A stretch of DNA of 63,992 bases, counting the filler, from an uncultured bacterium (lineage in GTDB: Bacteria; Hinthialibacterota; Hinthialibacteria; Hinthialibacterales; Hinthialibacteraceae): the NCBI GenBank assembly GCA_964449065.1. It is 10 parts of 10 records of this genome, joined end to end, with 100 filler letters (N's around TTAATTAATTAA, not from the genome) between each part and the next. Parts side by side here need not be neighbours in the genome. Positions count along the whole stretch, not along the records: positions 20,339 to 26,988 come from CAYVAZ010000296.1; 9 more parts are not named here. One strand, given 5' to 3'. The notes below the pieces were generated by a model. That model saw only the letters and a program-made list of their open reading frames with translations. It ran no database searches and was not told where the DNA came from. The position numbers were made by a program, and so were the translations under genes. This document shows, one piece after another, positions 20,116-36,811 of this stretch; position 1 is the first letter of the stretch, and each line of letters begins with the position of its first letter.

Positions 20116-20381
20116 TTTTTATTTAGTTGTTATTGGAAAGAATATCTGCATCCAACCTATCTTTTTCTCTATTCGTTGAACGTTTATTTTTTATGAGGTA
20201 TTCTTTAGAAATGAGTGGTACAATATTGCCATTCGATCNNNNNNNNNNNNNNNNNNNNNNNNNNNNNNNNNNNNNNNNNNNNTTAATTAATTAANNNNNN
20301 NNNNNNNNNNNNNNNNNNNNNNNNNNNNNNNNNNNNNNTCCCCATGACGCAGTAGCGTAATTAGAGGTTTATTCCTCCCGA

Positions 20382-20418
20382 CCCCTCACCCCGGCCCTCT
20401 CCCGGTGGGAGAGGGTGA
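20382..20418. repeat. REP-like palindrome
   Basis: CCCCTCACCCCGGCCCTCTCCCGGTGGGAGAGGG, a widespread bacterial hairpin repeat type; near a contig end. Confidence 0.7.
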
Positions 20419-20594
20419 TAGATTAAGCGAACGATTAGAAAAATGGGCATATCATAATGTAGTGCGTAACGTGAGTTACTAATGTAATACTAAAAATCTT
20501 TTCAAAATTTTACATTTTTTATAATTTCTTTAATTCAAATTGATTTTTCATGCCCGATCTACTATAATGGTTTATCGAATCCCGGAGACAAACC

Positions 20595-21131
20595 ATGGAT
20601 ATCTTTTCTGAAATCATATTCTTTTTCTTTAGTTCCATACCGGATTTATACGTCCAGGACTTTCAATTTGGCGGTGATTCCCCTAAATTTTTTGACAATA
20701 AAGGGATGGATCCCCAGATTTTGGTCTGGATACTTGTATCACTTGCTTTAATCATTTTTGGATTGGTATATGGCCTGCACCGGTACAACAAATGGAAAAA
20801 ATTTAAAGCGTTTGAAGATGAAATGCGTACGTTGGATTTGAATCCGGACGATGAAAGTACCTTTGCAGGTATGGTGAAACGCTTTGAAATGGAAGAACCC
20901 GTAAATGTTCTGATGTCTGCGAGACTGTTTGATGAAATGGCCACTAAAGAAATTGAAAAAGTTTTAGGAAGCTCCGGCTCAAAAAGTTCAAAAGAAAATT
21001 TTATTCAACAGGTTTACCGCATCCGCACCAAAACCTATCATCCCGATTGGCTGCGCACGAACGAGATGGAAGTTCCCGTCTTATCCGCCCGGCATCCGAA
21101 AGACGCGGAAAGCGAAATGGCAGTCAGTTAA
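20595..21131 (+). CDS. Single-TM hypothetical protein
   Basis: GGAG SD; TM ILVWILVSLALIIFGLVYGL followed by a helical cytoplasmic domain. Confidence 0.7.
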   Translation: MDIFSEIIFFFFSSIPDLYVQDFQFGGDSPKFFDNKGMDPQILVWILVSLALIIFGLVYGLHRYNKWKKFKAFEDEMRTLDLNPDDESTFAGMVKRFEMEEPVNVLMSARLFDEMATKEIEKVLGSSGSKSSKENFIQQVYRIRTKTYHPDWLRTNEMEVPVLSARHPKDAESEMAVS

Positions 21132-22064
21132 TTGCCCATAATACGTTTTAACCCCGCCGAACCGCTCTTTAAATTGTTCGATGCCTTTGATTCCCGCGCT
21201 GGCACCAAAATTGATCAAACCATATCCGCGCTCACATGCGTCTTGAATCACTTCGCTCATCATCAATTTGGGCGCGTTCAGTTGATCATAATCCGCTTGC
21301 TTCGCGCCCGTAAAATATTGCACTTCCCGTTTCCCATAAAGCATTACATCAAAGGCGATAATTTGCCCTTCGTATTCCGCAATCCAAACCCGAATTTCTT
21401 CTCCCGGTTTATCAGCCAATGCATTATAAAAGTTCAAGGGAACAGCCAATTCGCCGCCCCAACGCTCTTGCGCTTTTTGATAGATGTTTTGACAAGTTTC
21501 AACCGTTTTCCGGTCGTTAGCCCACCGAACCGAAACCCCATCATGCGCGGATTTGCGAATGGCCGTGCGCAGCCGCGACTGAAACCGCTGCTGTTCAATA
21601 TCCTCATACGGTTGATTTAAATGAAGAATATGTGTGTAGAGTTGACGGATCGATAGGCTTCCTGAGTTTTGCCGGTCTATTCTCCCATAAAACGAGGGAT
21701 GAAGTGTAAAACTTACGATGGGTTGTTTCCATGAAATTGGGTGTTTGCTCAAGACTTGAAGATGTTCTATAGAAACCCCTTCCCCAACCGGATTGCCATA
21801 CGTTCCCCACGGCAGCGCTTCATATTTATGAAACCCAAACCTCTTTGGAACAGCAAATCCCGGCATGATACATTCCACACCATCGTCAAACTGCACGTAA
21901 TGATGAAGCGGGTGAATATTCGGCAATGTTTCTTGCAATAGCCGGCACCAAGATGGCGTATGAAAATACGAATGCACCGGCAAAGTATCCACGATTGATT
22001 GCCAAACCGCAAATGGCTTTTCATCGGGGATGGCATGAATTGTTTGAATGGTAGGTAATGACAT
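21081..22064 (-). CDS. GNAT/FemAB-like acetyltransferase (polysaccharide-associated)
   Basis: YFHTPSW, LPWGTYG, RTAIRKS..GV, INFGAS..GIEQFKERFGG. Confidence 0.85.
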   Translation of the reverse strand: MSLPTIQTIHAIPDEKPFAVWQSIVDTLPVHSYFHTPSWCRLLQETLPNIHPLHHYVQFDDGVECIMPGFAVPKRFGFHKYEALPWGTYGNPVGEGVSIEHLQVLSKHPISWKQPIVSFTLHPSFYGRIDRQNSGSLSIRQLYTHILHLNQPYEDIEQQRFQSRLRTAIRKSAHDGVSVRWANDRKTVETCQNIYQKAQERWGGELAVPLNFYNALADKPGEEIRVWIAEYEGQIIAFDVMLYGKREVQYFTGAKQADYDQLNAPKLMMSEVIQDACERGYGLINFGASAGIKGIEQFKERFGGVKTYYGQLTDCHFAFRVFRMPGG

Positions 22065-22084
22065 AACTTCCCGCTCTATTCACA

Positions 22085-23659
22085 CTAGTGTATCGCGATT
22101 ACACGTATATCCCCAAACTGCTTTACCGAGGATTTATCGTCCAAAAGCGAATAGGCCGTAGGTATGATACTGAGTTTGATGTGAAACCGTTTGCATACCG
22201 ATTGAATGGTTTGAATCTGATCGTTGGGGATGTTGGTAGTGACAAACACAACCTCATCTATCTTTCTGGCGGGAAGCAGCCGTTCTAAATCGTTTACCGT
22301 CCCCAGATATGGAATGGATTGAGAGCGGGTTTGGTTGTCCGGTGTAGATACATATCCTGCCAGATACAATCCCCATTCGGGATGCTGTTGGATCGACGCA
22401 ATTAGGGCTTCACAAAGAGTCTCGTCTCCCACCAAAATAACCCGGTCTATGCTGATGCCCTTGCGGTGCAGCCAGCGCTCCAACTGCCGGAACAAAAGTC
22501 TCCAACTCAGGATTCCCAACCCCAACAATATACCGAACACGCCAAATACACCGCGGGAGAATCCGGCAATATCAGCAAACAAATTTTTAAACACAAATTG
22601 AAATCCGGTAATAATCAATACCGCCAGCACCGCGGCCTTGATACACTGCATGCTCAACCGGTATGAGCTGATGTACGGATTTCGCCGGTACAGTTTGGAA
22701 AAATAGTTGGCAGGCAAACACAGCAGCGGAATATAATAGAATAACTCACCATACGCTTTGGTATCCAATATCGGCATGTCCGGATAGGGATCCTGTTCCG
22801 GCAGCAACAGGCGGAAATAGAACCAGTATGAAAGCATATACAAAATCATCGCCAACACGGCATCTACAACCGCGAGCAAAGCAGGGCGCATCCACCGTGC
22901 CATCCGTTTTTGATGCGCGTAAGACAGCCGGTCAATCATCAACAAAAAATACACCGGCGCTCCGCCAAATACCCGTTTGCCAACGGTGACGGGACGCTGC
23001 AGCATGCGGTACACCCATTCAAAGCCTAACTTCTGCATCCAAACCGGAGCGCGTTTCTCCCGCCCGGTGATAAAGTTGAATGTGCCGCCTACTCCAAAAC
23101 TCACTGGAACCTTCATCACATTCTTACGCCGCCGAATCCATTTTTCCTGCCGGGGTGAGGCCAGCGCTGTAAACAAAATATCCGCGCCGGAATCACGAAT
23201 CATTTCTATTACTTTATTTTCTTCGGTTTCGGATTGTTCAAACCGGTATGGCGGGCTGTAGGTACCGGCCACTTTTAATTGTGGATACTGTTTTTGCATG
23301 ATGCGGGCCACTTCATCCGCGACGCCTTCATCTCCACCCAAAAAGAATACCGAATAGCCTTTTTGGGAAGCCATTTCGCATATTTTCGGTAGCAAATCGG
23401 AACCGGTGACCCGTTCTTTAAGAGGGGTTTTGTGAAGCCAGGCCGCTAATGTTACAGATACACCATCTGCCACAACCAAAGCGGCTTCATTGACCACCAG
23501 ATTAAATTCGGGATCACGGCGGGTTTGGATAATCTGATCGATGGCGGGAGATACAATCTGCCGCGGCGTGCGGTCAGCAACCATTTCATCAATGCGCCGC
23601 AGAACCTCATCATAGGTCATATTATCAAATTGCACGCCCAGCAATTCTATGCGGTTCAT
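22085..23659 (-). CDS. WecG/TagA glycosyltransferase fused to the TM + Rossmann-like N-terminal part of WcaJ/WbaP-type PGTs
   Basis: ADGV, ERVTGSDL, ASPRQEKWI, GVGGTF, RAPVWMQKLGFEWVYR; then TMs, SRGVF, RVILVG, YLG, IDEVV. Confidence 0.85.
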   Translation of the reverse strand: MNRIELLGVQFDNMTYDEVLRRIDEMVADRTPRQIVSPAIDQIIQTRRDPEFNLVVNEAALVVADGVSVTLAAWLHKTPLKERVTGSDLLPKICEMASQKGYSVFFLGGDEGVADEVARIMQKQYPQLKVAGTYSPPYRFEQSETEENKVIEMIRDSGADILFTALASPRQEKWIRRRKNVMKVPVSFGVGGTFNFITGREKRAPVWMQKLGFEWVYRMLQRPVTVGKRVFGGAPVYFLLMIDRLSYAHQKRMARWMRPALLAVVDAVLAMILYMLSYWFYFRLLLPEQDPYPDMPILDTKAYGELFYYIPLLCLPANYFSKLYRRNPYISSYRLSMQCIKAAVLAVLIITGFQFVFKNLFADIAGFSRGVFGVFGILLGLGILSWRLLFRQLERWLHRKGISIDRVILVGDETLCEALIASIQQHPEWGLYLAGYVSTPDNQTRSQSIPYLGTVNDLERLLPARKIDEVVFVTTNIPNDQIQTIQSVCKRFHIKLSIIPTAYSLLDDKSSVKQFGDIRVIAIH

Positions 23660-24102
23660 TCTGGATTACTTTTCTTAAAGATCTCAAAGAATATATACCC
23701 TATCTTAAACCTCTGTTCGTTTTCATAAAGTATACGCTAAAAAATTTAGTGAGGTCATCTATTCTGAATTCAACTATACGCGCAAATTACGTTTGGTTTT
23801 TTAAGTTCTTTCCCCCCCTCTAACCCACCCCAGTCTTGGAGGAAATTTCTCTGGCAGGCACCGTTTTGAGTATGCCGATTTCAAACGAATGAAATCTGTA
23901 TTTTTTTATGATATAATGTTGATATTGTGAATATAATTTGATACAATTTGAAAGTTTAAGAAATCTGTTTATACCAATTTTATTTAGGATTGTAGAGAAC
24001 GAAAAACGATCGGTCTTTTTTTACTGAAGGTTATCGCCGCGCTTCCTCTAAAATTCAAAATGTAACCGGTATAATTAAACCCCAAATTCAGGAGGTAAGT
24101 AG

Positions 24103-25161
24103 ATGGATTTCAGCAAGATTTTATGCAGCACGCTCGCTTTATGTTTTTCGGTAGTTGTGTCGAATGACTCCTCCGCCCGTCCGTTCCGCCCCGGCCAAAT
24201 GCCTAACGGAAATGTATTTAACTGTGCCACATGCCATATCAGCGAATTCGGCGGCGGCCCCCGCAACCCTTTTGGTCAAGATGTGTTTCCCCGCGTCAAT
24301 CCCGGACAGCCTACGGTATTTTGGGGACCCGAACTCGCCATGATCGATTCCGATGGCGATGGATTTACTAACGGTGAAGAACTTCTTGATCCAGAAGGGA
24401 CATGGCAGCAAGGCGATCCGCAGCCGGGTGATCCCAGTCTTGTTACCCATCCGGGCGATCCGGATTCCAAACCGGCGCAAGTCATTGAACCGGCTGAACT
24501 CCCGTTTATGGAAGATTTTGAAAGCGCCGCGTTGGGTGAAAGCATAGAAGAAGAAGTCAGCGCCACAGGTGTCTGGACCAATCAAACATTTAACGGTTGG
24601 AGCGTAGACAACAGTGGTGTTGTGGGAGCCGACCAAGGTTTGGGTGTAGACGAGTGGATTGGCTGGACATTTGCTGATAAAAACTGGTGGGCGGATACTG
24701 CCGGAGATCAGCAGCGGACACTATTTACCAATGCATCCGGCGTTGTCGCGGTTGCCGACCCAGATGAATGGGACGACATCGATTCACCTGGAAGCCAAGG
24801 GACGTATACGTCTTTCCTCAGCACCCCGCCGATCAACGTGTCTGGTGCCGCACCGGAATCCATCCTTTTAACCTTTGATTCCAGCTGGAGAGACGAAGAT
24901 ACCCAAGCCGCAAATATTACGGTTACCTTTGATAGTGATTTCCCGGAAGAAATTTTATTTTGGTCTTCCGACCCCAATGACCCCGCCTTTCATGATGATG
25001 CGCCGAATGAAACCGTAAATATAGAAATCAACAATCCGGCAGGAGCATCCGAAATGGTCATTACCTTTGGCATGCTCGATGCAACCAACGACTGGTGGTG
25101 GGCCATCGACAATGTTCAAGTCACCGAAAGTACCAAAATCGGAACATGGGAACTCTATTAA
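24103..25161 (+). CDS. Secreted protein: CxxCH temptin-like domain + acidic Trp-rich beta-sandwich + C-terminal W-motif
   Basis: AGGAGG SD; signal peptide; CATCH; RNPFGQD; DSDGDGFTNGEEL; NDWWWAIDN; ends IGTWELY. Confidence 0.8.
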   Translation: MDFSKILCSTLALCFSVVVSNDSSARPFRPGQMPNGNVFNCATCHISEFGGGPRNPFGQDVFPRVNPGQPTVFWGPELAMIDSDGDGFTNGEELLDPEGTWQQGDPQPGDPSLVTHPGDPDSKPAQVIEPAELPFMEDFESAALGESIEEEVSATGVWTNQTFNGWSVDNSGVVGADQGLGVDEWIGWTFADKNWWADTAGDQQRTLFTNASGVVAVADPDEWDDIDSPGSQGTYTSFLSTPPINVSGAAPESILLTFDSSWRDEDTQAANITVTFDSDFPEEILFWSSDPNDPAFHDDAPNETVNIEINNPAGASEMVITFGMLDATNDWWWAIDNVQVTESTKIGTWELY

Positions 25162-25186
25162 ATTCACCTGTAAACATTATCCACTC

Positions 25187-25218
25187 AAAGAGCCTTCATT
25201 TTTATGAAGGCTCTTTTT
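25187..25218 (+). terminator. Intrinsic terminator
   Basis: AAAGAGCCTTCAT-TTTT-ATGAAGGCTCTTTTT. Confidence 0.8.
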
Positions 25219-25314
25219 CTTTTCTCTCATGACTCTCCTCATAACCGAAACTTTCGAATATGATTCTGATTGGTATTAAATAAGTTTATTCATTGTGTTT
25301 TTTGGGAGGGTTGT

Positions 25315-26730
25315 ATGTCGGAACCGGTGAAATTTTTTCAGCAGGTCAATAACTATTTTGATAAAGCCGCGCCCTATACGGATTACCATCCGGGTCTTCT
25401 CGATCAACTCAAAAATTGCAACAGCGTTTATCACATGACGTTTCCGTTGAAGAAAGATGATGGGACGATCGAAGTCATCCACGCATGGCGGGCGGAACAC
25501 AGCCACCACCGCTTTCCAACCAAAGGCGGAATCCGCTATGCCGCGAACGTGCATGAAGATGAGGTCACCGCGTTGGCGGCATTGATGAGTTACAAATGCG
25601 CTGTTGTGGAAGTTCCGTTTGGCGGTGCCAAAGGCGGCGTGCAGATCGCGCGCTATAAATACAGTGACGCGGAAATTGAGCGCATTACCCGCCGCTATAC
25701 CAGTGAACTGATTGCCAAAAACTTCATCGGTCCCGGCTTGGATGTCCCCGCGCCCGATTACGGCACCGGCCCGCAAGAAATGGCATGGATTTCTCACACC
25801 TACGGCAAACTTACCAGCGACCAACTCTCGGCAACCGCTTGTGTTACGGGAAAACCCATCGCCCACGGAGGGGTACGCGGCCGCACCGAAGCCACCGGAC
25901 GGGGAGTATTCTTCGGCATTCGGCAAGCCTGTGAACACAAAGAGGATATGGAACTGCTGGGGTTGCAGCCCGGTTTGGGAGGCAAAACGGTCGCCGTGCA
26001 GGGGCTGGGCAATGTGGGGTATCACGCGGCCAAGTTTCTTGCGGAAGGCGGGGCCAAAGTGACCTGCGTGACCGAATACGAGGGCGCCATCTACAACCCA
26101 AAAGGCTTGGATATCGATGCCCTGTATGAATACCGGCGGGAACACGAATCGCTATTGGGCTTTCCCGGATCAACCAAACTGAATTCGCGCGAAGAGGGGC
26201 TAGAAATCGAATGCGATATACTGATTCCCGCCGCGCTGGAAAACGTGATTACGCCCGATAACGCCGGCCGCATCAAAGCAAAAATTATCGCCGAAGCCGC
26301 CAATGGCCCGGTCACTTCAGAAGCCAACGATATGCTGGTCCGCAATGGAAAAATGATTATTCCGGATTTATACCTCAACGCGGGCGGGGTGACGGTCTCA
26401 TATTTTGAGTGGATTAAAAATCTTTCGCACATGCGGTTTGGCAGATTGGACAAACGCCATGAACAAGCAGCTCATACCAAGGCCATAGAAATTATGGAAC
26501 AACTCACCGGGAAAAAAGTGGATCGCCACTATTATGAGCAATACACCAAAGGCGCGGATGAGGAAGATTTGGTGAATTCTGGGCTGGAGGAAACGATGGT
26601 CACCGCCTACGAGCGCATTCGCCAAACCCAAAAGAAGCACGACGGTAAAATTGATCTGCGCACCGCCGCCTTTGTCGAAGCCATCAACAAAATCGCTGTC
26701 TTCTACCTCGACATGGGCATCTTCCCTTAA
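25315..26730 (+). CDS. gdhA: Glutamate dehydrogenase
   Basis: PTKGGIRY, PFGGAKGG, DVPAPD, GRTEATG.G, QGLGNVG, EAANGP, NAGGVTVSYFEW; GGAGG SD. Confidence 0.95.
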   Translation: MSEPVKFFQQVNNYFDKAAPYTDYHPGLLDQLKNCNSVYHMTFPLKKDDGTIEVIHAWRAEHSHHRFPTKGGIRYAANVHEDEVTALAALMSYKCAVVEVPFGGAKGGVQIARYKYSDAEIERITRRYTSELIAKNFIGPGLDVPAPDYGTGPQEMAWISHTYGKLTSDQLSATACVTGKPIAHGGVRGRTEATGRGVFFGIRQACEHKEDMELLGLQPGLGGKTVAVQGLGNVGYHAAKFLAEGGAKVTCVTEYEGAIYNPKGLDIDALYEYRREHESLLGFPGSTKLNSREEGLEIECDILIPAALENVITPDNAGRIKAKIIAEAANGPVTSEANDMLVRNGKMIIPDLYLNAGGVTVSYFEWIKNLSHMRFGRLDKRHEQAAHTKAIEIMEQLTGKKVDRHYYEQYTKGADEEDLVNSGLEETMVTAYERIRQTQKKHDGKIDLRTAAFVEAINKIAVFYLDMGIFP

Positions 26731-26816
26731 CTGGCGAGTCGCCGGAGACACTTTCGCACGATGAAAATACTGCGAAGGGTGAAGGCCCGGCATTCCTTTC
26801 GCTTGCCTTCGGGCGC

Positions 26817-26988
26817 TAGAGCAATTCAGGTTTGCGCAAAGGTACAACGGTACATCCATGTACCGGCTGGAAGCCGATGCTGCCCGGCTATTCAACTCTG
26901 AAACGCTCTAGTACTGTGTCAACGTTTTATTGAGGGGTATCGACCCCCCCTAGCCCCCCTTAACAAGGGGGGAAACAACGGATAACCA
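26817..26988. mobile_element. MITE copy 2 (26817-26910) abutting a CTAGTACTGTGTCAACG end and a C6/G6 hairpin
   Basis: TAGAGCAATTCAGGTTTGCGCA...CTATTCAACTCTGAAACGCTCTA; the following motifs recur at 43789-43805 and about 44075-44110. Confidence 0.78.
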
Positions 26989-27504: not shown

Positions 27505-30500
27505 TTAGTTTGAAAGATCATCAAACACCTTCACATTGTGCAGGATGACCTGTTCTTCGTCGTCTCCGGCAATTTGCACTGCCGCGAACATTTCGCCCAG
27601 ACCCTCCGTAGTGTTGAGGCCGTTGAGGCGTATGGTATGCAGCTCTTCTTCCGGTAGGATGAACAGCGGGATATTGAACTGCGTGGAACTGGGGCCGTTG
27701 GTTAATACGACGGTGAAGGTTCCCGTATCGCCCCGAATTTTTTCCACATCCATCTCTATGGCGGTTCGGCTGGGAATATGGCCTTGCGTGAATGGGGCCA
27801 CGAATTGAGTCAACTGCTGATTTTCGGTTTTGTTCATCATCAGCGTATTGCCTTGTTTGATGGCGATTCCCGTATTGTCTTGCGCGAACAAGTTGGCTTG
27901 CCAATCGACTTCCAATTCATTTGCGAAAGAAAAGCCGGGCTGCAAATCGATTTCAAAATTGTCGAGTAAGACCGAGGCGGCGGATTGTCCACTGTTGACC
28001 AGGATGATAAACGGGGTAATACGCGAAGCGTTGCCCAGCCCGGCCATTTTGGCTTGATGCCAGGTTCCCGGAGTGAATTCAGGCGAGCCTTTCAGAGTGA
28101 ACATGTTGGAGCCGCCGCTGTTGTTGATCTCAACAAAGCCGCCCACGGCTACTTGCACGTTCGCGCTGGACGCGTTGAACCAGGCGCGAACTTCCACCGG
28201 TTCGGATGAGACATCGATTGCCGGCGCGTTGATGGTCACAAACACACCCGGCGGGACGCTAACGCTCAGCCCGACTCCATTGGTGGCTTGAGGCTGATCC
28301 TCATCCTCCGGCATATCGAAATCGATTCCGGCGCCGGTGTCCACCGGATTGACGGAGAAGTCTAACGTATCCAGTGACTGATCAATCGAGTTGAACGGGT
28401 AGCGAATCACGGTAACCGGAGTAGGGGTGACCGTGGGGGTATTGGTCGGCGGCGGTGTGTTGGTTGCCGTTGGAGATGGCGTGGGAGTGTCATCCAGCGC
28501 CGTTGGTGTTGCTGTTGGCGTTACGTTTGGTTCAGATGGTGTTGGCGTGTTTGCCGGTGGGTTCGTTGCCGTATTCGTAGGTGAAGGCTCTACCACCGTT
28601 GGTGTTGGTGAAGGCTGGGCTGGGTCTTGAGTCGGTGTCGGGGATGGATTCGGCAATGGTGCGGACGTGAAAGTTGCCGTTGGAGTATGGGTGGCAGTGA
28701 ACGTTGGCGTGATGGTTGCTGTATTTGTTGGTGTGTTGGTAATGGTAAAGGTCGGCGTAAACGTCGGAGTAACGGTTGCCGTTGGTGTATGAGTTGCCGT
28801 GTTGGTTGGCGTCGGTGTGGGCAGCACATTGTCTACTATATTAACGCGCACGGTGACGGTTGGGTTGTCTATGTCATCGGAGGATATGACGATATCGCGT
28901 GTGCTGTTGCCTTCGGGCGCTTGGTCGAAGTTGACAGAGACGGATATTTTCTTGCTGTCATCCGGTGCGATTGGTGCGGATTCGTTCGGGACGGCTGAAA
29001 TCCAGGGGCCGTTTTCGATGGTCATGCTGCTGACGGTTAAGCCGCCGGTGCCGTCGTTGAAGATATCAAACGCGCCGGTGGAATCGGTTTGCTGGAAGGC
29101 TTCACTAACCAACGAAAACTCAACCGGCCCTTCAGGGATTGTTCTTCCGTGAACTTCAATCGTCCACAATCCGGCCTCGGGATTGGTGACCACGGTTTGC
29201 TCGACGTTATCCACGGTGTTGGTTCCGGTAATGGCGGAACTGTTGGGATTGTTGGCGTTTAATACCCACGGTGAGAACGTGTTGCCGGATGGCGATTTCA
29301 GCACCAAATCCAAATCGTTGACCAAGGCTTTAGATGCGGAAGCGGTCCCGGCTACATCGAGCCAAACAAGAGTGGCTTTTAATTCCGTTTCATTTTCACC
29401 AACGGAGATCGAGAAAGGGATAAAGGTATCGGCGGAGATGCTGCCGTTGCGGTATAAGGTATCCGTAATTAATCCGGCGGAAGCGACGGAATCGATGAGT
29501 CCCCAGCCGAAGGTATAGTCAGGGCCGGGATTGCCTAAATCGCGGGCTCCATGAACCAGTAGGGCTTTCATCAATTGAGAAGATGGTTCCAAATCGGTTA
29601 GCTGCATGAAGTATTGGTACAAAAGGGTTGCGGCCCCGCACGCGCTGGGTGTGGCCATCGAGGTACCGGAAAACTGCCCATATTGATTGCCCGGTAATGT
29701 GGATAGCAAAGAGACTCCGTTGGCGGTGAGGTCGGGTTTTACGCGGCCGTCATCGGCGGGGCCTTTGCTGCTGAAACTGGCGATGCCGTCGTTATCTTTG
29801 GAGGCGGCGATGGTGATGATATTTTTGGGCACACCCATCGGGCCAATGGTATCAAACGGACGGAAATTGCCGTCATTGCCGGCGGCTTTAAAGACGATGA
29901 GGCCGGTGTCGTAGACCACTTCATCCCACGGGATGCTGTAGATGTTGTAGGTACCATAGAGTTGTGGTGCGGAATCCAGTACCAGCCCGTAGGAGTGGTT
30001 GGAGAGGCGAATGCCTTCATTGAACGCGCTGCGCATTTCGGTATCGTCGTTGTTCCAATCGTAGGCATGAATGAATGCACTGGATGCCATGCCTTCCGCC
30101 TGGCCGAAGCCCGCGCCGGACCCGGCAATCGTGCCGGATACATGAGTGGCATGATTATCATTCGTCGCGCGGGGAAACGTTTCTTTATTCGTTAGCCGTG
30201 AGCCGAAATCGGAGTGGGAGGAGACAGACCCCGCATCCCACACACCGACCGTGATGCCTTTCCCGGTAAGGTCAAAGGGGATTTCTTGCAGGTCGTTCAC
30301 ACGGATACGTTCTTGGGCCGTCAGGTTGTTGGCCTGGTATTCGGGTTTGTCGGGTTCCACCCACTCAACGGCATCCAGTTGTGCGAGTAACGAAACGTTT
30401 GATAAGCCGATCTCAACGCGGACGACATGCGGGTGTGGAGTATCAATAATGCTGCCGCCTAGTGCTGTGATACCGCCTTCAACATCATTGAGTTCCATAT

Positions 30501-33342
30501 CTTTAAAGAGGGCAACATAAACTCTAACGGTATCGCCGTTGACACGGGCGTAATCCGGAAAGTTATCTGCTTCGGCTAAGGGTGATAGCCGGTTGAATTC
30601 GGCTGCGTTTGCCATCCAGCGTACATTGCCCATATTGCTGAGCGGCGATACGCCTTGCGGCTGTGGAGAGACAGCAGCCCAGTAGGCATAATTGGGAACG
30701 TAGGATAACAATTCAACGCCTTGATTATTGAGCCGCGCTTTGTCTTCATCCGTTGGCAATTCATAGAACTGAATCAGCACATGGCGTTTGTTTTCTTCTT
30801 GGGTGCGGAGAGCGCTTAGAGTTAAGCCCGCGGCGTTTTGCGGTGCTGGAACCCGCTCATTGGTTTTGACGTGCAGGGTGTAATCGCGCTGATTGATCGG
30901 GCGTTTTGCCAGCAATTTTGCTTGCGGCTCATCGGCAACAATTTTCCCGCGTGAAAAGGTAAGTTCGGATGGTTCAACGCGAATGGCCGGCGGGCCCGCG
31001 GGTATGGTTGGTGTCGCGGTCGGTGTCAATGTTGGCGGTATTGTCGGAGTAAAAGTATTGGTTGGTGTTGATGTTGAACCAACCGGCGTATTGCTGGGTG
31101 TTGGTGTAATCGTTGGGGTGTTGCTGGGCGCAATCGGAGTATTCGGGTTTGGAGTTGATGTCGGGCCGGGCGGTGTTGCTGTGCTTGTATGGGTTGGTGT
31201 AGATGTTGGCTGCCCCGGCTGTGGTGTATTGGTTGGTTCTTCGGATGGTGGAACCGCTTGGGTGTTTGTCGCGGTGGGTTGACCGGGCTGCGGAGTATTG
31301 GTTGGCGGCGCGGTAGTCGGTGTATTGGTTGGTGCGCTGCTTGTTGGGGTTGATGTCGGTAAGGGTACCGGCGTAAAGGTGGCGGTTGGCAGCACCGGAA
31401 TAGGTGTATTTGTTGGGCTAGGCAAAGGCGTGTTGGTTGGTACCGGCACAACCGGTGTAAATGTATTGGTTGGCGGCTGCGGGATCGCGGTTGGAGTGTT
31501 GGTTGCCGTGGGCGGTTCGCTCGTTGGTGTTGCTGTTGGCGGTATGGGAGTTGGTGTTGGTTCCCCCAATTCGTTTTTGAATGTAATTGTGCCGGCGTTT
31601 TCAAATGGACCAAAGAATGGCGGGTTGCCGACATTGGTGATGAAGAAAACGCGGAAGCGGTATTCATTGTCAAACTGCGGGCCGCTGATAAAGCCGGATT
31701 CGATTCCGGTACCATCGGGTTTCCATTCTAAAAACGATGCGCTTCCACTGCCGGTTTTGCCCAGCAGTTCAAATATACCATCACCGTTGGTTTCGACAAA
31801 GACAAAAACATCTTCGACCATAGAGGTATCAACGCGCTCCAAATCAAAATTCCAACGTATCACTAAATCACGTTGGCCGGGCGGATCAAAATCTTCATGG
31901 CCGCTTAAATCGAGTTGATCGTTGACGGTGTCGCTGACAAAGACAGAATTTTCCGGATTGTTGTTGAGCGCGATGACGGTTAAGGTGTCGGATGCTGGGG
32001 CGTTGACTTGATCATCAACGGTTAAACGAAGGACGTATGTTCCCGGCGTGCTGGGGGTAAAGATTGGATTTAAAATATCAGACGCTGAGAATTGCGTGGT
32101 TATGGTATCCGGGCCGGATGCGATCTCCCAGGTGATGACAAAGTTGCCGTTCCCGCCGCCCGCAGCGCCTTCCAGTTGAAAGGGCTCATTCACCGGAACC
32201 GCGACACTGATGCCTGCCCCGCCAGAGAAAGCATCGGCTTTCACTTCAGCCTGCTGGCCGATCTTGCGGATTTTGTGGTTGCTCATATCCGCGATATATA
32301 CATTGCCGCTGGAATCAAGCGCCAGTCCTTCCGGTTCGAAAAAGGAAGAATTGATGATCAAGCCATCGTTTGAACCTTCGGTTCCGTTGCCACCGATGGT
32401 GGAAATATTTCCGAGTGAGTTGACTTGACGAATGCGGTTGTTGCGGGTATCCGAGATATACAGCACTCCAGTCTTGGTGGATATCACATCGAAGGGCTGG
32501 CTGAGTCTGGATTCGACTGCCGGTCCGCCATCTCCGGTAAAGCCGGATGTATTGGTACCAGCCACGGTAATGATGGTTCCGGAGGGCAGGATTTTACGTA
32601 CAACATGGTTAAAGGAATCGGCAATCAACAAATTTTCGATGCCGTCTTGAAACACGCTGGTGGGGTTGTGTAAAAGCGCTAGAGTGGCCGGTCCGGTGTC
32701 GCCTTCGAATCCAAAAGAGCCTCCTTGACCGGCGACGGTTGTAATAATTCCGCCGGAATCAATTTTACGGATGACATGATTGGCGGTATCGGCGATGAAG
32801 ATTTCTCCGCTGTCGTTCACGTACACATCATTAGGGCGGAACAACTGAGCGTTGACGGCTTGGCCGCCGTCGCCGGAGAAACCAGATGCCCCCGTGCCCG
32901 CAATGGTGGCAATGGTGCCTTCGGTATCGATTCGGCGGATTTTATGGTTTTGGCGGTCGGCAACATACAGATTGCCTTGTGTGTCAAAACTTAGGCCGGC
33001 AGGACGGTTGAATTGGGCGTTGAGCGCGGAACCGCCGTCTCCGGATGAACCTTCAACTCCGGTGCCCGCATAGGTAGATATCTTACCGCTTTGATCAACT
33101 TTGCGGATAACGTTGTTGTCAGTATCGGCAATATACATATTGCCGAACGGGTCGAATTCAACATCGGCGGGGAAGTTTAATCCGGCAAGAGTGGCTAAAT
33201 CTTGATCGCCAAAGAAGCCTTGCACCCCCGATCCGGCTGCTATACTCACTAAATTACCAGGTATTTGTGCTGAAACGGTTTGGATAAAACTAGTCAACAA
33301 TACGGCAAAGCAGGCCGATATTAAGCGAGATAGATCTTGCAT
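27505..33342 (-). CDS. Giant secreted protein: NHL repeats, PKD-like domain, unknown domain, PT linkers, S8 subtilase with prodomain inside an Ig domain, C-terminal beta-sandwiches
   Basis: YIADT.N..IRK repeats; triad [44 protein letters not shown] before ATG 33342. Confidence 0.9.
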
Positions 33343-33365
33343 AGGGTTCACCCTCCCGATATCGA

Positions 33366-33392
33366 ATATCGGCTTTTCATCCAATAACTTTA
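33366..33392 (-). promoter_or_regulatory. sigma28 (FliA/SigD)-type promoter
   Basis: Minus strand TAAA-GTTATTGGATGAAAA(15)-GCCGATAT. Confidence 0.78.
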
Positions 33393-33611
33393 AAACATTT
33401 TGCAAATAATTATAACATAAAACCGGAATTCATGTATTATTTTAATTCGTGTTTTAGATGAATTTAAACAAATCAAGTTTGGGTAACATAGAGAGAATTA
33501 TTTATATTCCCCCTTCCCTCCCTTAATAAGGAAGATCAACAACGGCAGGAACTATCTATCCATCCTTTAAACGCTCTATAAGCGTCAACACTTAATTTTT
33601 TGCTATGTAAA

Positions 33612-33734: not shown

Positions 33735-33835
33735 GNNNNNNNNNNNNNNNNNNNNNNNNNNNNNNNNNNNNNNNNNNNNTTAATTAATTAANNNNNNNNN
33801 NNNNNNNNNNNNNNNNNNNNNNNNNNNNNNNNNNN

Positions 33836-34199
33836 GCCCGAGCACACGCGCGCCGACGACCCCGCCCTCATGCCCGCGCCAGGGCTCACCGACTGGCTCA
33901 CCCTCAGGGCTCCAGAGGCGAAGGGTCTTGTCCCAGCTCCAGGACAGGATGCGGTCGGGCCCGAGCGCAAGCGCGCCATTGACCGGGCCCTTATGCCCCA
34001 TCAGGGTCGCGTCCGAAAGCGGAAGGGCTTGGCGTCCTGGGTGTGTCGATGGGACAGCTTGACCCTTCAAAAGATCAAAGTCGGCTAGAAAGTCCAGATA
34101 GGTTGCAGCATTTTTCTGCCTGGGCATCCCGGCAAGGCGCGATGACAAGCCAGAATAGTTACGCCAGAAACGCAAATGATCTTCAGGGTTTACCGTCAT
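33836..34199 (-). CDS. WD40-repeat protein (3' partial)
   Basis: LMGHKGPVNG...ILSWSWDKTLRLW, WRGHEGGVVG. Confidence 0.8.
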
Positions 34200-34458
34200 T
34201 CTGCGCCCTCGTCCGCCACGAAGAAACGTTACAGCGCGTGTCGAGACTAATGCAACATCGGATTGCCGCCTTTGCCTTCTTGTGTGATCATCTGCTCATG
34301 TTCCGGCATACGGGTCCCAAGAGGCGGGAAGATCACCACCCAATGCAAGCCGCCTCTGCTCAGATCAATGACTGGAGATGAAACCCGCTGCACAGCTATC
34401 GATCGCATTTATCCACGCGTTTCCAACAACAACGCAACTCTCAGTATGGACCTCCAAC

Positions 34459-34842
34459 TCACGGCCGCTCACCTTGCGTCTCCCGTAGTCTGTGCGCCAC
34501 TTGCGCTGCGAAATGCTCATATCGACGCCTTCCCAGTGCCTGCGCTGCATCGCGCTCGCCCTCCGGAATTGGTTCCAACCGGGTGAGCCAGTACAGCACG
34601 TAGTGACCGAGCGTTTCAGTGCAGAGGCGCAGGTCGGCTTCCATGCGCCCCTGTCTTATATCAAACTGGTCCAAACGTGACAGCAGCCGCGGCTCACGTG
34701 GATGGGTCTCCTCAGGATGAAAATACTGAGCGAGCGCGGCTTCGATAATCGCCGTCATGGTCGATCCGTGCACGGAAGCCTCCAGCTGCAGTCTCTCCCA
34801 AATTTCATCAGTGACCCGAATGTTTATGCGATTGGGCTTCAT
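34459..34842 (-). CDS. CopG/RHH protein of conjugative elements
   Basis: RINIRV..., IIEAAL, RLD...ETL...V.YWL...P.P, AQALGRRRYEHF; directly after traG. Confidence 0.85.
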   Translation of the reverse strand: MKPNRINIRVTDEIWERLQLEASVHGSTMTAIIEAALAQYFHPEETHPREPRLLSRLDQFDIRQGRMEADLRLCTETLGHYVLYWLTRLEPIPEGERDAAQALGRRRYEHFAAQVAHRLRETQGERP

Positions 34843-34846
34843 GGGC

Positions 34847-36811
34847 TCAATATCCTGGCATTGCATCGGGATCGACTTCATCAAGCGCCACGGCCCGCTT
34901 TATGGCATCGAGGTGCTGCGCGTCGGCAGGATCAACCGGTTCATCCTCGGGATCGTCATCGCGAGGCACCTCCAGGTCCCGATCAGGCGGCGGTTCCTGT
35001 TGCATCTCATGACGGATCTCGCGCCCGGTCTCGTCATCCTTCGAGATCGCCCCGATCAATCCGGCAGTATCCGGCTCGGCCCGAAGCCCTACCCAGTCAG
35101 AGGCAGGCGCTTGCGACCGAACCACACCAGCTGCAGCAGGCAGCACGCGCCCGGTAAAATTGCGATCCTCGAAATAGCGCAGCTTCTTAGCCAAAATGGG
35201 CGGCGTGCCTGACACCATCACCACCTCGTCCGTGGGCGCCATCTGCATGACCTCGCCGGGCGTCATCAGCGCCCGCTGGGTTTCCTGGCGCGAGACCATC
35301 ATGTGCGAAAGCCAGGGTGCGAGCCGGTGGCCGGTATAATTCTTCTGCGAGCGCAGCTCGGTCTTGGCGCCCAGCGCCTCGGATATTCGCTTGGCGGTGC
35401 GTTCATCATTGGTCGCAAAGGCGATACGCACATGGCAATTGTCGAGGATGGCATTGTTCGGCCCGTAAGCCTTTTCGATCTGGTTCAACGACTGGGCGAT
35501 CAGATAGGCCCGCACGCCATAGCCTGCCATGAAGGCAAGCGCGCTCTCGAAAAAATCAAGCCGTCCCAGCGCCGGAAACTCGTCCAGCATCAGGAGCAGT
35601 TTCCGCCGCTTCGTATCGGGCAATGATTCGGTCAGCCTCCGTCCGATCTGATTGAGGATGAGCCGCACCAGCGGCTTCGTCCGCGACAGGTCCGAGGGCG
35701 GCACGACAAGGTAAAGCGACACTGGTCGCGGCCCCTCCACCAGATCGCTGATCCGCCAGTCGCTCGCCGATGTCACCGCCGCCACAACCGGGTCGCGGTA
35801 GAGCGAAAGGAAGCTGAGCGCCGTGGACAGAACACCAGACCGCTCGTTCTCCGACTTGTTCAAAAGCTCCCGCGCGGCCTGAGCGACAACGGGATGAACA
35901 GAACGGCTCCCACCCTCAGCCACAACGTGCTTCGTCGTCAGCATTCGCGACAGCGTTTCCTTGAACGGGCGGGATGGGTCGGACAGGAAGGCCGCGCAAC
36001 CAGCCAGCGTCTTGTTCTCCTCCGCATAAAGAACATGCAGGATCACGCCGACCAGCAAGGAATGACCGGTCTTTTCCCAATGGTTGCGGCGCTCCAGCGA
36101 GCCTTCCGGATCGACCAGAATGTCGGCGATGTTCTGGACGTCGCGCACTTCGCCTGCACCCTTGCGTACCTCCATCAGCGGATTGAAACGCGGCGAGCTT
36201 GCATCGGTCGGATCAAAGCGCAGGCACGTCGCAAACCCCGATCGCCATCCCGATGTCAGATCCCAGTTCTCGCCCTTGATGTCATGCACCACGGCGCTGC
36301 CCGTCCACGAGAGCAGCGTCGGCACAACCAGCCCCACCCCCTTGCCTGACCGGGTTGGCGCAAAGGCCAGCACATGTTCCGGCCCGTCATGGCGCAGATA
36401 GTCACCCTTCCAGCGCCCGAGGAACACGCCGTCACCGCCAAGCAGCTTCGCGCGCACAAGATCGCGCTTCTCGGCCCAGCGAGCCGAGCCATAGGTCGTG
36501 ACGCGCTTTTCCCAACGCGAGCGCCAGACCGAGCCGATGACGGCCGCCAGAATGCCGAGCAGTCCGCCACTGGCAGCAATCGCCCCACCGCGCGCGAATA
36601 CGGTCGGCGCATAGGCCTCATAGGCGTACCACCACTGGAATAGCCGCCAGGGCCGATAGACCGGCCAGCCGTCAACGACAAACCATGGCCGCCCCAAAGC
36701 TGGCTGATATCCGAACGCATGCGCCACCCATTGCGTCGCGCCCCATAGGGTCGCCACGATGATGGTCAGGACAATGAGAAACTGACCGATGAGAATCTTC
36801 GATGGCGACAT
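34847..36811 (-). CDS. traG: Type IV coupling protein TraG/VirD4
   Basis: TYGSARWA, FAPTRSGKGVG, HDIKGENW, LDEFPALG, AQSLNQI. Confidence 0.96.
   Translation of the reverse strand: MSPSKILIGQFLIVLTIIVATLWGATQWVAHAFGYQPALGRPWFVVDGWPVYRPWRLFQWWYAYEAYAPTVFARGGAIAASGGLLGILAAVIGSVWRSRWEKRVTTYGSARWAEKRDLVRAKLLGGDGVFLGRWKGDYLRHDGPEHVLAFAPTRSGKGVGLVVPTLLSWTGSAVVHDIKGENWDLTSGWRSGFATCLRFDPTDASSPRFNPLMEVRKGAGEVRDVQNIADILVDPEGSLERRNHWEKTGHSLLVGVILHVLYAEENKTLAGCAAFLSDPSRPFKETLSRMLTTKHVVAEGGSRSVHPVVAQAARELLNKSENERSGVLSTALSFLSLYRDPVVAAVTSASDWRISDLVEGPRPVSLYLVVPPSDLSRTKPLVRLILNQIGRRLTESLPDTKRRKLLLMLDEFPALGRLDFFESALAFMAGYGVRAYLIAQSLNQIEKAYGPNNAILDNCHVRIAFATNDERTAKRISEALGAKTELRSQKNYTGHRLAPWLSHMMVSRQETQRALMTPGEVMQMAPTDEVVMVSGTPPILAKKLRYFEDRNFTGRVLPAAAGVVRSQAPASDWVGLRAEPDTAGLIGAISKDDETGREIRHEMQQEPPPDRDLEVPRDDDPEDEPVDPADAQHLDAIKRAVALDEVDPDAMPGY

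Follow-up and report, generated by a model that had tools for sequence, protein, structure and literature searches.

We analysed a stretch of 63,992 nucleotides (the window) from an uncultured bacterium of the Hinthialibacteraceae (NCBI GenBank assembly GCA_964449065.1). The window is a string of contigs, and the gene described here lies on one of them, contig C296 (6,650 bp; positions 20339-26988). Genes elsewhere in the window come from other contigs and are uninformative about it. The gene is a lone open reading frame (ORF) whose predicted product is exported and carries a CxxCH motif in a domain related to temptin, a sea-slug pheromone protein (Table 1). From sequence comparisons, we suggest that this product is probably a c-type cytochrome module with a single haem, with a head of the type found in the cytochrome-porin Cyc2, borne on a surface-adhesion module. 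The gene is flanked by a divergent gene for a WecG-type glycosyltransferase and, beyond a terminator-like hairpin, by a glutamate dehydrogenase gene; two such hairpins were found in the region, compared to 1.7 expected. The mature protein is predicted to begin at Arg26, counted below as mature residue 1. In mature numbering, the temptin-like domain consists of a haem half (residues ~1-50) and a calcium-loop half (~51-97). The initial annotation had listed PNG, CATCH, GGGPRNPFGQD, a Trp, ELAMIDSDGDGFTNGEELLDPEGTW and THPG after a 25-residue signal-like segment, and all of these motifs are present.

Table 1. Features of the temptin-domain gene and its product (positions in the window; residues in mature numbering).
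Feature	Position	Strand	Basis or comment
Temptin-domain ORF	24103-25161	+	352 amino acids, lone gene
Ribosome-binding site AGGAGG, 7 bases 5' of ATG	24090-24095	+	sequence reading
Predicted Sec signal peptide, 25 amino acids, cut after SSA	24103-24177	+	predicted from homologues, without SignalP
Temptin_C domain, residues 1-97	24178-24468	+	Pfam PF24784, E = 2.6e-13
Fixed-length N-terminal arm RPFRPGQMPNG	24178-24210	+	Pro9 invariant (138/138); same register in Aplysia temptin
Putative CxxCH haem c attachment motif CATCH (Cys16, Cys19, His20)	24223-24237	+	alignment, homologues
RNPFG motif and the helix starting there	24262-24294	+	in register with Cyc2 haem head; model helix 31-39
DxDxDG-type 12-residue calcium loop DSDGDGFTNGEE (Asp57-Glu68)	24346-24381	+	conservation; binding predicted
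THPG (His91)	24445-24456	+	His91 not conserved
Trp- and acid-rich beta-sandwich, MAM / cleaved-adhesin / CBM-like jelly roll, ~215 residues	24487-25128	+	model, Foldseek, ESM Atlas
C-terminal tag ending W-x-L-Y	25132-25158	+	recurrence among genome ORFs
Intrinsic-terminator-like hairpin, 13 pairs, T tail	25187-25216	+	consensus match only

We found that the domain is related to temptin, as the initial annotation had proposed. The Pfam model Temptin_C (PF24784) matched the window protein at 50.7 bits (cut-off 27; E = 2.6e-13), with residues 32-118 aligned to positions 10-97 of the 98 in the model. In a BLASTP comparison, Aplysia californica temptin (P0265) was identical at 33 of 74 positions (45%; E = 3e-15), and a profile-profile comparison of bacterial and eukaryote-type domains gave a probability of 99.75 (E = 2.7e-27). 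The BLASTP alignment places His20 of the CxxCH motif on His51 of the Aplysia temptin precursor, so that CxxCH stands in place of the temptin GVGH with His aligned on His. The two proteins share Pro9-Asn-Gly, the His, N-x-F-G, a Trp, the DSDGDG loop, the PG end and a start at the signal site. They differ in that Aplysia temptin has G-x-G-H instead of CxxCH, and the window protein has a shorter loop before the His and lacks the disulfide cysteines. Both of these cysteines were correctly noted as missing: Ala54 and Gly74 occupy their columns, and there is no Cys outside CxxCH.

Temptin proper is reported to have two disulfide bonds (PMC2762978), and DSDXD has been named as its calcium-binding motif (PMC10075465). 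The window protein has DSDGD at residues 57-61 and no cysteines for either disulfide. The attractant activity of temptin is not to be expected of a bacterial protein. Because the disulfide cysteines are absent, the window protein is, by its sequence, a member of the Pfam Temptin_C family and not a temptin proper. It also differs from the temptin/DBH-like monooxygenase hybrids, one of which has been published (PMC2762978): their partner is a copper monooxygenase, whereas the window protein has a beta-sandwich and a bacterial tag. The Temptin_C family already exists in Pfam, and its bacterial members are catalogued. At 50% identity and E <= 0.001 the domain family has 1,864 representatives, bacterial and eukaryote-type together. 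A literature search, which left most subscription journals outside its coverage, returned among the papers listed none on bacterial temptin members, on haem in temptin or on a link between temptin and Cyc2, and nothing relevant on the ligand; it returned nothing on PF24784 or on Cyc2 with an N-terminal amine ligand.

We compared the bacterial domains to copies without CxxCH. Metagenomes were scanned with a pattern consisting only of the calcium loop and two flanking cysteines, which matched at least 122 stretches; these rows are labelled by motif, not by taxonomy. Among the matches listed, 71 stretches (one of them from a viral contig) had a parsable N-terminus, 10 with CxxCH and 61 without. 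An alignment of 52 of these 61 eukaryote-type copies, from which near-duplicates and mis-registered rows were left out, has Cys in 51 of 52 at each of the two columns where the window protein has Ala54 and Gly74; these cysteines were part of the search pattern and hence selected. The His, which the pattern did not cover, is kept in 51, and no copy has Cys at the column of the second CxxC cysteine. A search with one eukaryote-type copy gave a similar picture: among 120 homologues listed, 97 were parsed, of which 94 have GH, one a lone His, two neither and none CxxCH.

Some copies have both CxxCH and the disulfide cysteines. These bridging forms are probably bacterial (loci L085, L124, L134, L136, L155 with two genes, L156, L164, L165, L193 and L203). 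They sit between the other two groups in a quick tree (156 rows, 106 columns), in which a branch with a Shimodaira-Hasegawa-like approximate likelihood-ratio support of 94 sets the 68 eukaryote-type rows apart from the rest; because the tree is unrooted and short, it gives no direction of evolution. The viral copy is a eukaryote-type temptin domain on a 104-kb IMG/VR contig (L205:1359-1763).

We found that CxxCH is conserved in the bacterial homologues, as the initial annotation required for a haem protein. The motif is present in 250 of the 252 homologues from two homology searches, and both exceptions begin inside the motif and look mis-started. It is present in all 138 sequences of the bacterial alignment, and its spacing never varies. 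Because the two larger sets of homologues had been ordered by their similarity to a query that itself has CxxCH, we also ran the Pfam model against the phylum's 35 genomes, 25 of which have the domain. Besides the window gene, this search gave 29 loci, with CxxCH in all 28 that are readable; the 29th is N-masked at the motif, and four further matches were returned without loci. Carriers among the best 80 GTDB loci include Ignavibacteria, Kapabacteria, Latescibacterota, Verrucomicrobiota and Planctomycetota. A cluster in the ESM Atlas places the domain in Myxococcota; we take this as no more than a lead on the bridging forms.

The System I and System II haem synthases act on exported CxxCH motifs. 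The initial annotation had named Ccm as the system for expression, but Ccm is not supported as the native route, and the one present in this genome is System II: contig C47 carries a CcsA/ResC-type gene (185.1 bits with the CcsB model, just below its cut-off of 187.6) adjoining a ResB gene (E = 5e-12), and this System II-type gene is the only PF01578 match in the genome. CxxCH is carried by 115 of 11,601 genome ORFs. The conserved CxxCH in a predicted exported protein, together with a maturation system in the same genome, identifies a candidate c-type cytochrome. On the strength of established cytochrome c biology, we think it very likely that the domain binds haem c covalently.

The CxxC could instead form a disulfide, or a zinc or copper site with His20 and the N-terminal amine, in a protein with no haem. 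The domain would then serve as a module for metal binding or adhesion, stabilised by calcium, in bacteria and eukaryotes alike. In favour of this, eukaryote-type copies lacking CxxC retain both the His and the N-terminal spacing, copper enzymes are the fusion partners of many, and residue 1 is itself His in 17 of 87. Against this, an exported CxxCH is a substrate for the synthase system that the genome has, the CxxCH spacing is exact in 138/138, and the helix flanking the motif matches the haem head of Cyc2. We regard the absence of haem as improbable.

The domain does not belong to class I cytochromes c. The match to Pfam Cytochrom_C was below the cut-off (E = 0.1), and there is no conserved Met or second His. 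Membership of class I and of the cytochrome f family was rejected after phmmer, profile and fold comparisons gave no match, and a structure search of BFVD returned one row only (E = 6).

We found that the haem half resembles the head of Cyc2. Cyc2 is reported to carry a covalent, redox-active haem c (10.1101/228056, PMC13692758) and a motif AXPXFAR[Q/K][T/Y] upstream of CXXCH (10.1101/228056). Our Cyc2 set consisted of proteins with this published motif, which occurred in 65 of 401 genomes of one phylum and 3 of 81 of a second, in 0 of 151 genomes of a third, and in no viral contig. We translated 53 of these proteins (30 in a first set and 23 in a second). In hhalign, the N-terminal 40 residues of the bacterial domains matched the 30 Cyc2-motif heads of the first set with a probability of 95 (E = 2.3e-8), and all 30 heads scored above the 95th percentile of 269 other CxxCH windows.

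The similarity did not depend on the cysteines. A profile of 97 eukaryote-type N-terminal halves, which have no CxxC, gave at least 10 bits with 11/30 and 5/23 of the Cyc2 proteins, 16 of 53 in all (E = 0.0025-0.018), and with only one of the 11,601 genome ORFs, which was the window gene. Conversely, with a Cyc2 profile whose cysteines were masked, 82 of the 97 eukaryote-type domains scored higher than the 99th percentile of 1,940 shuffled sequences, and 29 exceeded the maximum. Similarity to Cyc2 and to Cyt572 lies in a single CxxCH near the mature N-terminus followed by an N-x-F-G helix. It extends beyond CxxCH, is in register with the His, and is weak for one subgroup. We consider it likely that temptin and Cyc2 heads share a common ancestor.

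An alternative is that the protein is a cytochrome with a separate small fold, and that its likeness to Cyc2 reflects convergence on a short helix-capping motif after CxxCH. The match is indeed short, one Cyc2 subgroup scores below 3 bits, and residues 1-11 of the bacterial temptin heads align poorly with Cyc2. However, the match to the eukaryote-type profile falls at the same place relative to the His, on the helix that follows it, in 43 of 53 Cyc2 proteins (30/30 and 13/23). The motif CxxCH-x(4,14)-[NT]x[FY]G is present in 39 of the 53 and is rare after other CxxCH motifs (2/218 genome CxxCH windows), and a start x-P-x-[FY] at the signal site is common to Cyc2 and the eukaryote-type and bridging forms. 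We judge convergence to be rather unlikely.

The window protein is not itself a Cyc2, judging by its sequence, because it has neither the motif nor the barrel. It starts RPFRPGQMPNG, without AXPXFAR[QK][TY] or PXL, and its CxxCH His is at position 20, not 16. A calcium-loop subdomain and a jelly-roll sandwich are found in place of a beta-barrel. Unlike the iron-oxidising Cyc2, it shows no evidence of iron oxidation.

We found that the length of the N-terminal arm is fixed. With the residue eight back from Pro9 taken as position 1, the residue at -1 is Ala, Gly, Ser or Cys in 218/222 bacterial and 83/87 eukaryote-type proteins; these counts leave out 30 of 252 and 33 of 120 proteins, respectively, that were truncated or whose motif was unparsed. 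A hydrophobic stretch precedes the cleavage site in 222/222 and 86/87. At other offsets in bacteria a small residue was present in 0-50%. The CxxCH His is at position 20 in 216 of 222 homologues, while residue 1 differs between proteins (Arg, Lys, Phe, Gln, Tyr or His). In every long-leader protein that we inspected, the domain was directly preceded by a hydrophobic stretch and a site with a small residue, and no internal or repeated copies of the domain were found among the stored proteins. In bacteria and eukaryotes alike, these results place the start of the domain exactly at the predicted site of signal-peptidase cleavage. As a side observation, position 3 is Cys in 21 of 222 bacterial homologues (P0076, P0115, P0118, P0127 and others), and some of these have a second extra Cys near 45, which suggests a disulfide that pins the N-terminal arm.

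The initial annotation had suggested the His of THPG as the distal haem ligand. We reject this for the family as a whole on the basis of the alignment, in which the column has Asn in 71, His in 21, Leu in 18 and Ala in 7 of 138 sequences. Among the remaining His, Met, Lys, Cys and Tyr columns of the domain none is conserved; the best is Lys13 (52/138). Because the N-terminus is fixed and there is no second conserved His or Met, we suggest the alpha-amine of Arg1 as a candidate sixth ligand. Constant spacing with a variable side chain fits use of the backbone amine. In cytochrome f, the alpha-amino group of Tyr1 coordinates a c-type haem trans to His25 (PMC4704743); this is a precedent for amine ligation by analogy only, as no relationship was found. 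We hold the proposal tentatively, at somewhat less than an even chance.

In a 2026 review, AlphaFold 3 models of Cyc2, Cyt572 and Cyc2PV-1 have one axial ligand each, and Cyt572 begins, by Edman sequencing, at the residue after the signal site (PMC13741234). Ghiorsea Cyc2, purified with the N-terminus left native and a His tag at the C-terminal end, is reported to be low-spin and to have two axial ligands (gz 2.94, gy 2.25); the authors interpreted these as His or Met without assigning residues (PMC13692758). Like the window domain, Cyc2 and Cyt572 have no identified sixth ligand in these two sources (PMC13741234, PMC13692758). In our 30 Cyc2-motif proteins, the CxxCH His is the only conserved His or Met column, and the barrels align poorly.

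Alternatively, haem c may be attached and remain five-coordinate, or its sixth position may be taken by water, a substrate or a partner protein. The domain would then bind gases or other ligands, act as a sensor or be a small catalyst, behaving like cytochrome c'. The fixed N-terminus would then be structural, for example an amine in a salt bridge with a conserved acid. The lack of a conserved second His or Met fits this possibility, invariant Glu68 and Asp71 could hold the amine, and Asn10 (Asn in 119, His in 13 and Tyr in 5 of 138) and Asn30 might serve as weak ligands. On the other hand, Asn10 is kept in only 4 of 8 bridging forms, the variable side chain and constant spacing at position 1 favour the backbone amine, and the haem of the related Cyc2 has two axial ligands (PMC13692758). 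We consider this alternative somewhat unlikely.

The second half of the domain contains the canonical 12-residue DxDxDG calcium loop noted in the initial annotation, which stands as a feature of the sequence. Asp61, Asn65 and Glu68 of the loop are invariant in the alignment, and the loop aligns to the EF loops of calmodulin. TSP3_bac matches were present in 53 of 55 members at E values up to 5. Like other DxDxDG loops (EF-hand, TSP3_bac PF18884 and Excalibur), the loop has 12 residues with Asp at 1, 3 and 5, Gly at 6 and Glu at 12. It differs in being single, with short flanking helices, and in scoring below the Pfam cut-offs. An AlphaFold2 model of the domain is confident and has five short helices (pLDDT 95.6, predicted template modelling score 0.88). 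Neither Foldseek nor VIA-align found a fold match in the PDB, which is not proof of a new fold.

The initial annotation had also predicted a C-terminal beta-sandwich. A model of this region (pLDDT 83.2) supports it: Foldseek matched MAM, gingipain cleaved-adhesin and CBM folds (E = 3.3e-6 to 1.1e-5, template modelling score ~0.5), and the ESM Atlas places the sandwich near cleaved-adhesin clusters (0.90-0.92). The fold appears to be shared with MAM, gingipain cleaved-adhesin and the CBM4 and CBM61 jelly rolls, yet identity is 10-16% and there is no Pfam hit. The sandwich is a mobile module: three other contigs of the genome carry five further copies or part-copies of it, in proteins that lack the haem domain (tblastn, ORFs). 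One exported protein contains three tandem copies, and two other proteins contain one each (L207:4012-5976, L208:2921-4672 and L206:1541-6865), and two of these three genes adjoin genes for pilin-like proteins with a type IV prepilin N-terminus. Only 4 of the homologues listed share the pairing of temptin domain and sandwich. The bacterial homologues mostly carry a type IX sorting tail, FlgD-Ig, dockerin, CHRD or immunoglobulin (Ig) repeats. Because the sandwich occurs without the haem domain and the homologues carry other partners, we infer that the haem domain is a plug-in head that the sandwich and tag position.

The C-terminal tag recurs in the genome. W-x-[LIVM]-[YFH] ends 46 of 3,510 closed ORFs of at least 200 amino acids, compared to 0-2 at 11 control offsets. 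The tag is often preceded by V-x-x, and it also closes many homologues in the phylum. It is probably a lineage-specific sorting or anchoring signal, as its distribution among ORFs suggests.

The genes next to bacterial copies of the domain include further cytochrome-like proteins. In 16 of the best 80 GTDB loci, nearly all from Ignavibacteria, the next co-oriented gene encodes a predicted beta-barrel protein of ~370 amino acids headed by CxxCH. These proteins end in an aromatic residue, and two relatives carry Porin_4. Their heads matched the N-terminal half of the temptin domain with a probability of 97 and scored a median of 23.1 bits, compared to 7.1 for 278 other CxxCH windows. The family (L007:6612-7724 and 15 other loci; 662 homologues) is Cyc2-like with a variant motif, has no Pfam or NCBIfam name, and has invariant His and Met residues in its barrel. 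A predicted complex of the Melioribacter domain, the neighbouring barrel, two haems and two calcium ions scored 0.00 with no contacts and carries no evidential weight. Some bacterial copies of the domain lie beside multihaem cytochromes or are fused to GSDH domains.

Other neighbours were seen repeatedly. At loci L018, L021, L043, L045 and L077, a small cytochrome-like lipoprotein of CxxxxCH type, a YceI protein and a DUF5777 beta-barrel recur beside the temptin-domain gene. Multihaem cytochromes adjoin it in L011:1601-5819 and L003:8587-9708, one of them with nine CxxCH motifs and a type IX sorting tail. On other contigs of the window, positions 27505-33405 (minus strand) encode a 1,966-residue exported protein with NHL repeats, Pro/Thr linkers and a subtilase domain. 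Positions 33780-36811 (contig C299), which we take to be a VirD4/TraG-like conjugal coupling gene region, have a sequence style unlike that of the neighbouring contigs and may be a mobile element or contamination of the bin.

Among the eukaryote-type ORFs scanned, many of them cut by locus ends, 19 of 31 were fused to redox proteins: copper monooxygenase in 11, desaturase in 4, ferric reductase in 2, and b561 alone and DOMON in one each. On balance, the sequence contexts favour a role for the domain in electron transfer outside the cytoplasm.

Our results are most consistent with the following model. Sec export and signal cleavage would expose Arg26 as the new N-terminus, as the conserved sequence implies. 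The System II synthase (CcsA/ResC and ResB) would attach haem to Cys16 and Cys19, with His20 as the proximal ligand, as in established cytochrome c biology. The haem pocket would likely be formed by the same small head as in Cyc2 (N-terminal arm, CxxCH and N-x-F-G helix), closed off by the calcium-loop subdomain in place of the Cyc2 beta-barrel. The sixth ligand may be the N-terminal alpha-amine, as in cytochrome f; we put this forward as a possibility slightly below even. The domain would, rather more plausibly than not, take up or give off single electrons at or beyond the cell envelope, with the sandwich and tag serving only to position it. Eukaryotic temptins would have the same fold minus the thioether cysteines.

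Several points weigh against this model, in addition to the ranking of the homologue sets by likeness to a CxxCH-bearing query. Comparisons by sequence, profile and fold gave no match to cytochrome f or to any solved cytochrome. The co-occurrence of the domain with maturation genes adds little because these are near-universal in the phylum (24/25 domain-bearing genomes compared to 33/35 overall). The match to Cyc2 spans just 13-25 residues and its high scorers are related sequences, mostly from one phylum; 14 of the 23 second-set proteins score below 5 bits, and with the reverse profile the bacterial temptin heads stand apart only modestly (median 11.1 compared to 5.1 bits). The window genome, which is 86.7% complete, has no match to the neighbouring barrel family, and most bacterial fusion partners are anchors and Ig or CHRD repeats rather than redox enzymes. 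A structural salt bridge would account for the fixed N-terminus equally well, and a YceI control for fixed signal-site spacing caught just four close sequences and was uninformative. Amine-ligated cytochrome f has a higher gz, near 3.5, and the value of 2.94 in Ghiorsea Cyc2 therefore counts against an amine ligand in that protein.

A broader reading, which we regard as speculative and unlikely as a whole, is that temptin domains and Cyc2 heads form one superfamily of minimal haem heads with the free N-terminal amine as sixth iron ligand. Bacteria would use it as a plug-in surface cytochrome, mounted on many kinds of stalk and anchor. A form with CxxCH and the disulfide would have given rise to eukaryotic temptins, which would have lost the thioether cysteines in a secretory pathway unable to attach haem c. 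They would still bind haem b or a metal between the N-terminus and the conserved His, and would relay electrons to the fused copper monooxygenases, b561, ferric reductases and desaturases.

The initial annotation did not mention the resemblance to the Cyc2 head, the fixed mature N-terminus or the bridging forms. The domain is probably a new variant of c-type cytochrome. If haem is confirmed, it would be a widespread small cytochrome without a fold match in the PDB, hidden under the name of a pheromone. Temptin is so far known as a pheromone, as a calcium-binding protein and as a shell protein. It is often fused to enzymes that require electrons, and its conserved His is a candidate hemin or copper site. 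Cyc2 is a membrane protein with no solved structure in the literature covered (PMC13741234, PMC13692758). As a soluble relative of its head, of ~100 residues, the temptin domain could be an easy model for it. If the superfamily reading is true, the pheromone protein of sea slugs would be a redox domain put to another use, and Cyc2 would supply its missing ligand from its own N-terminus.

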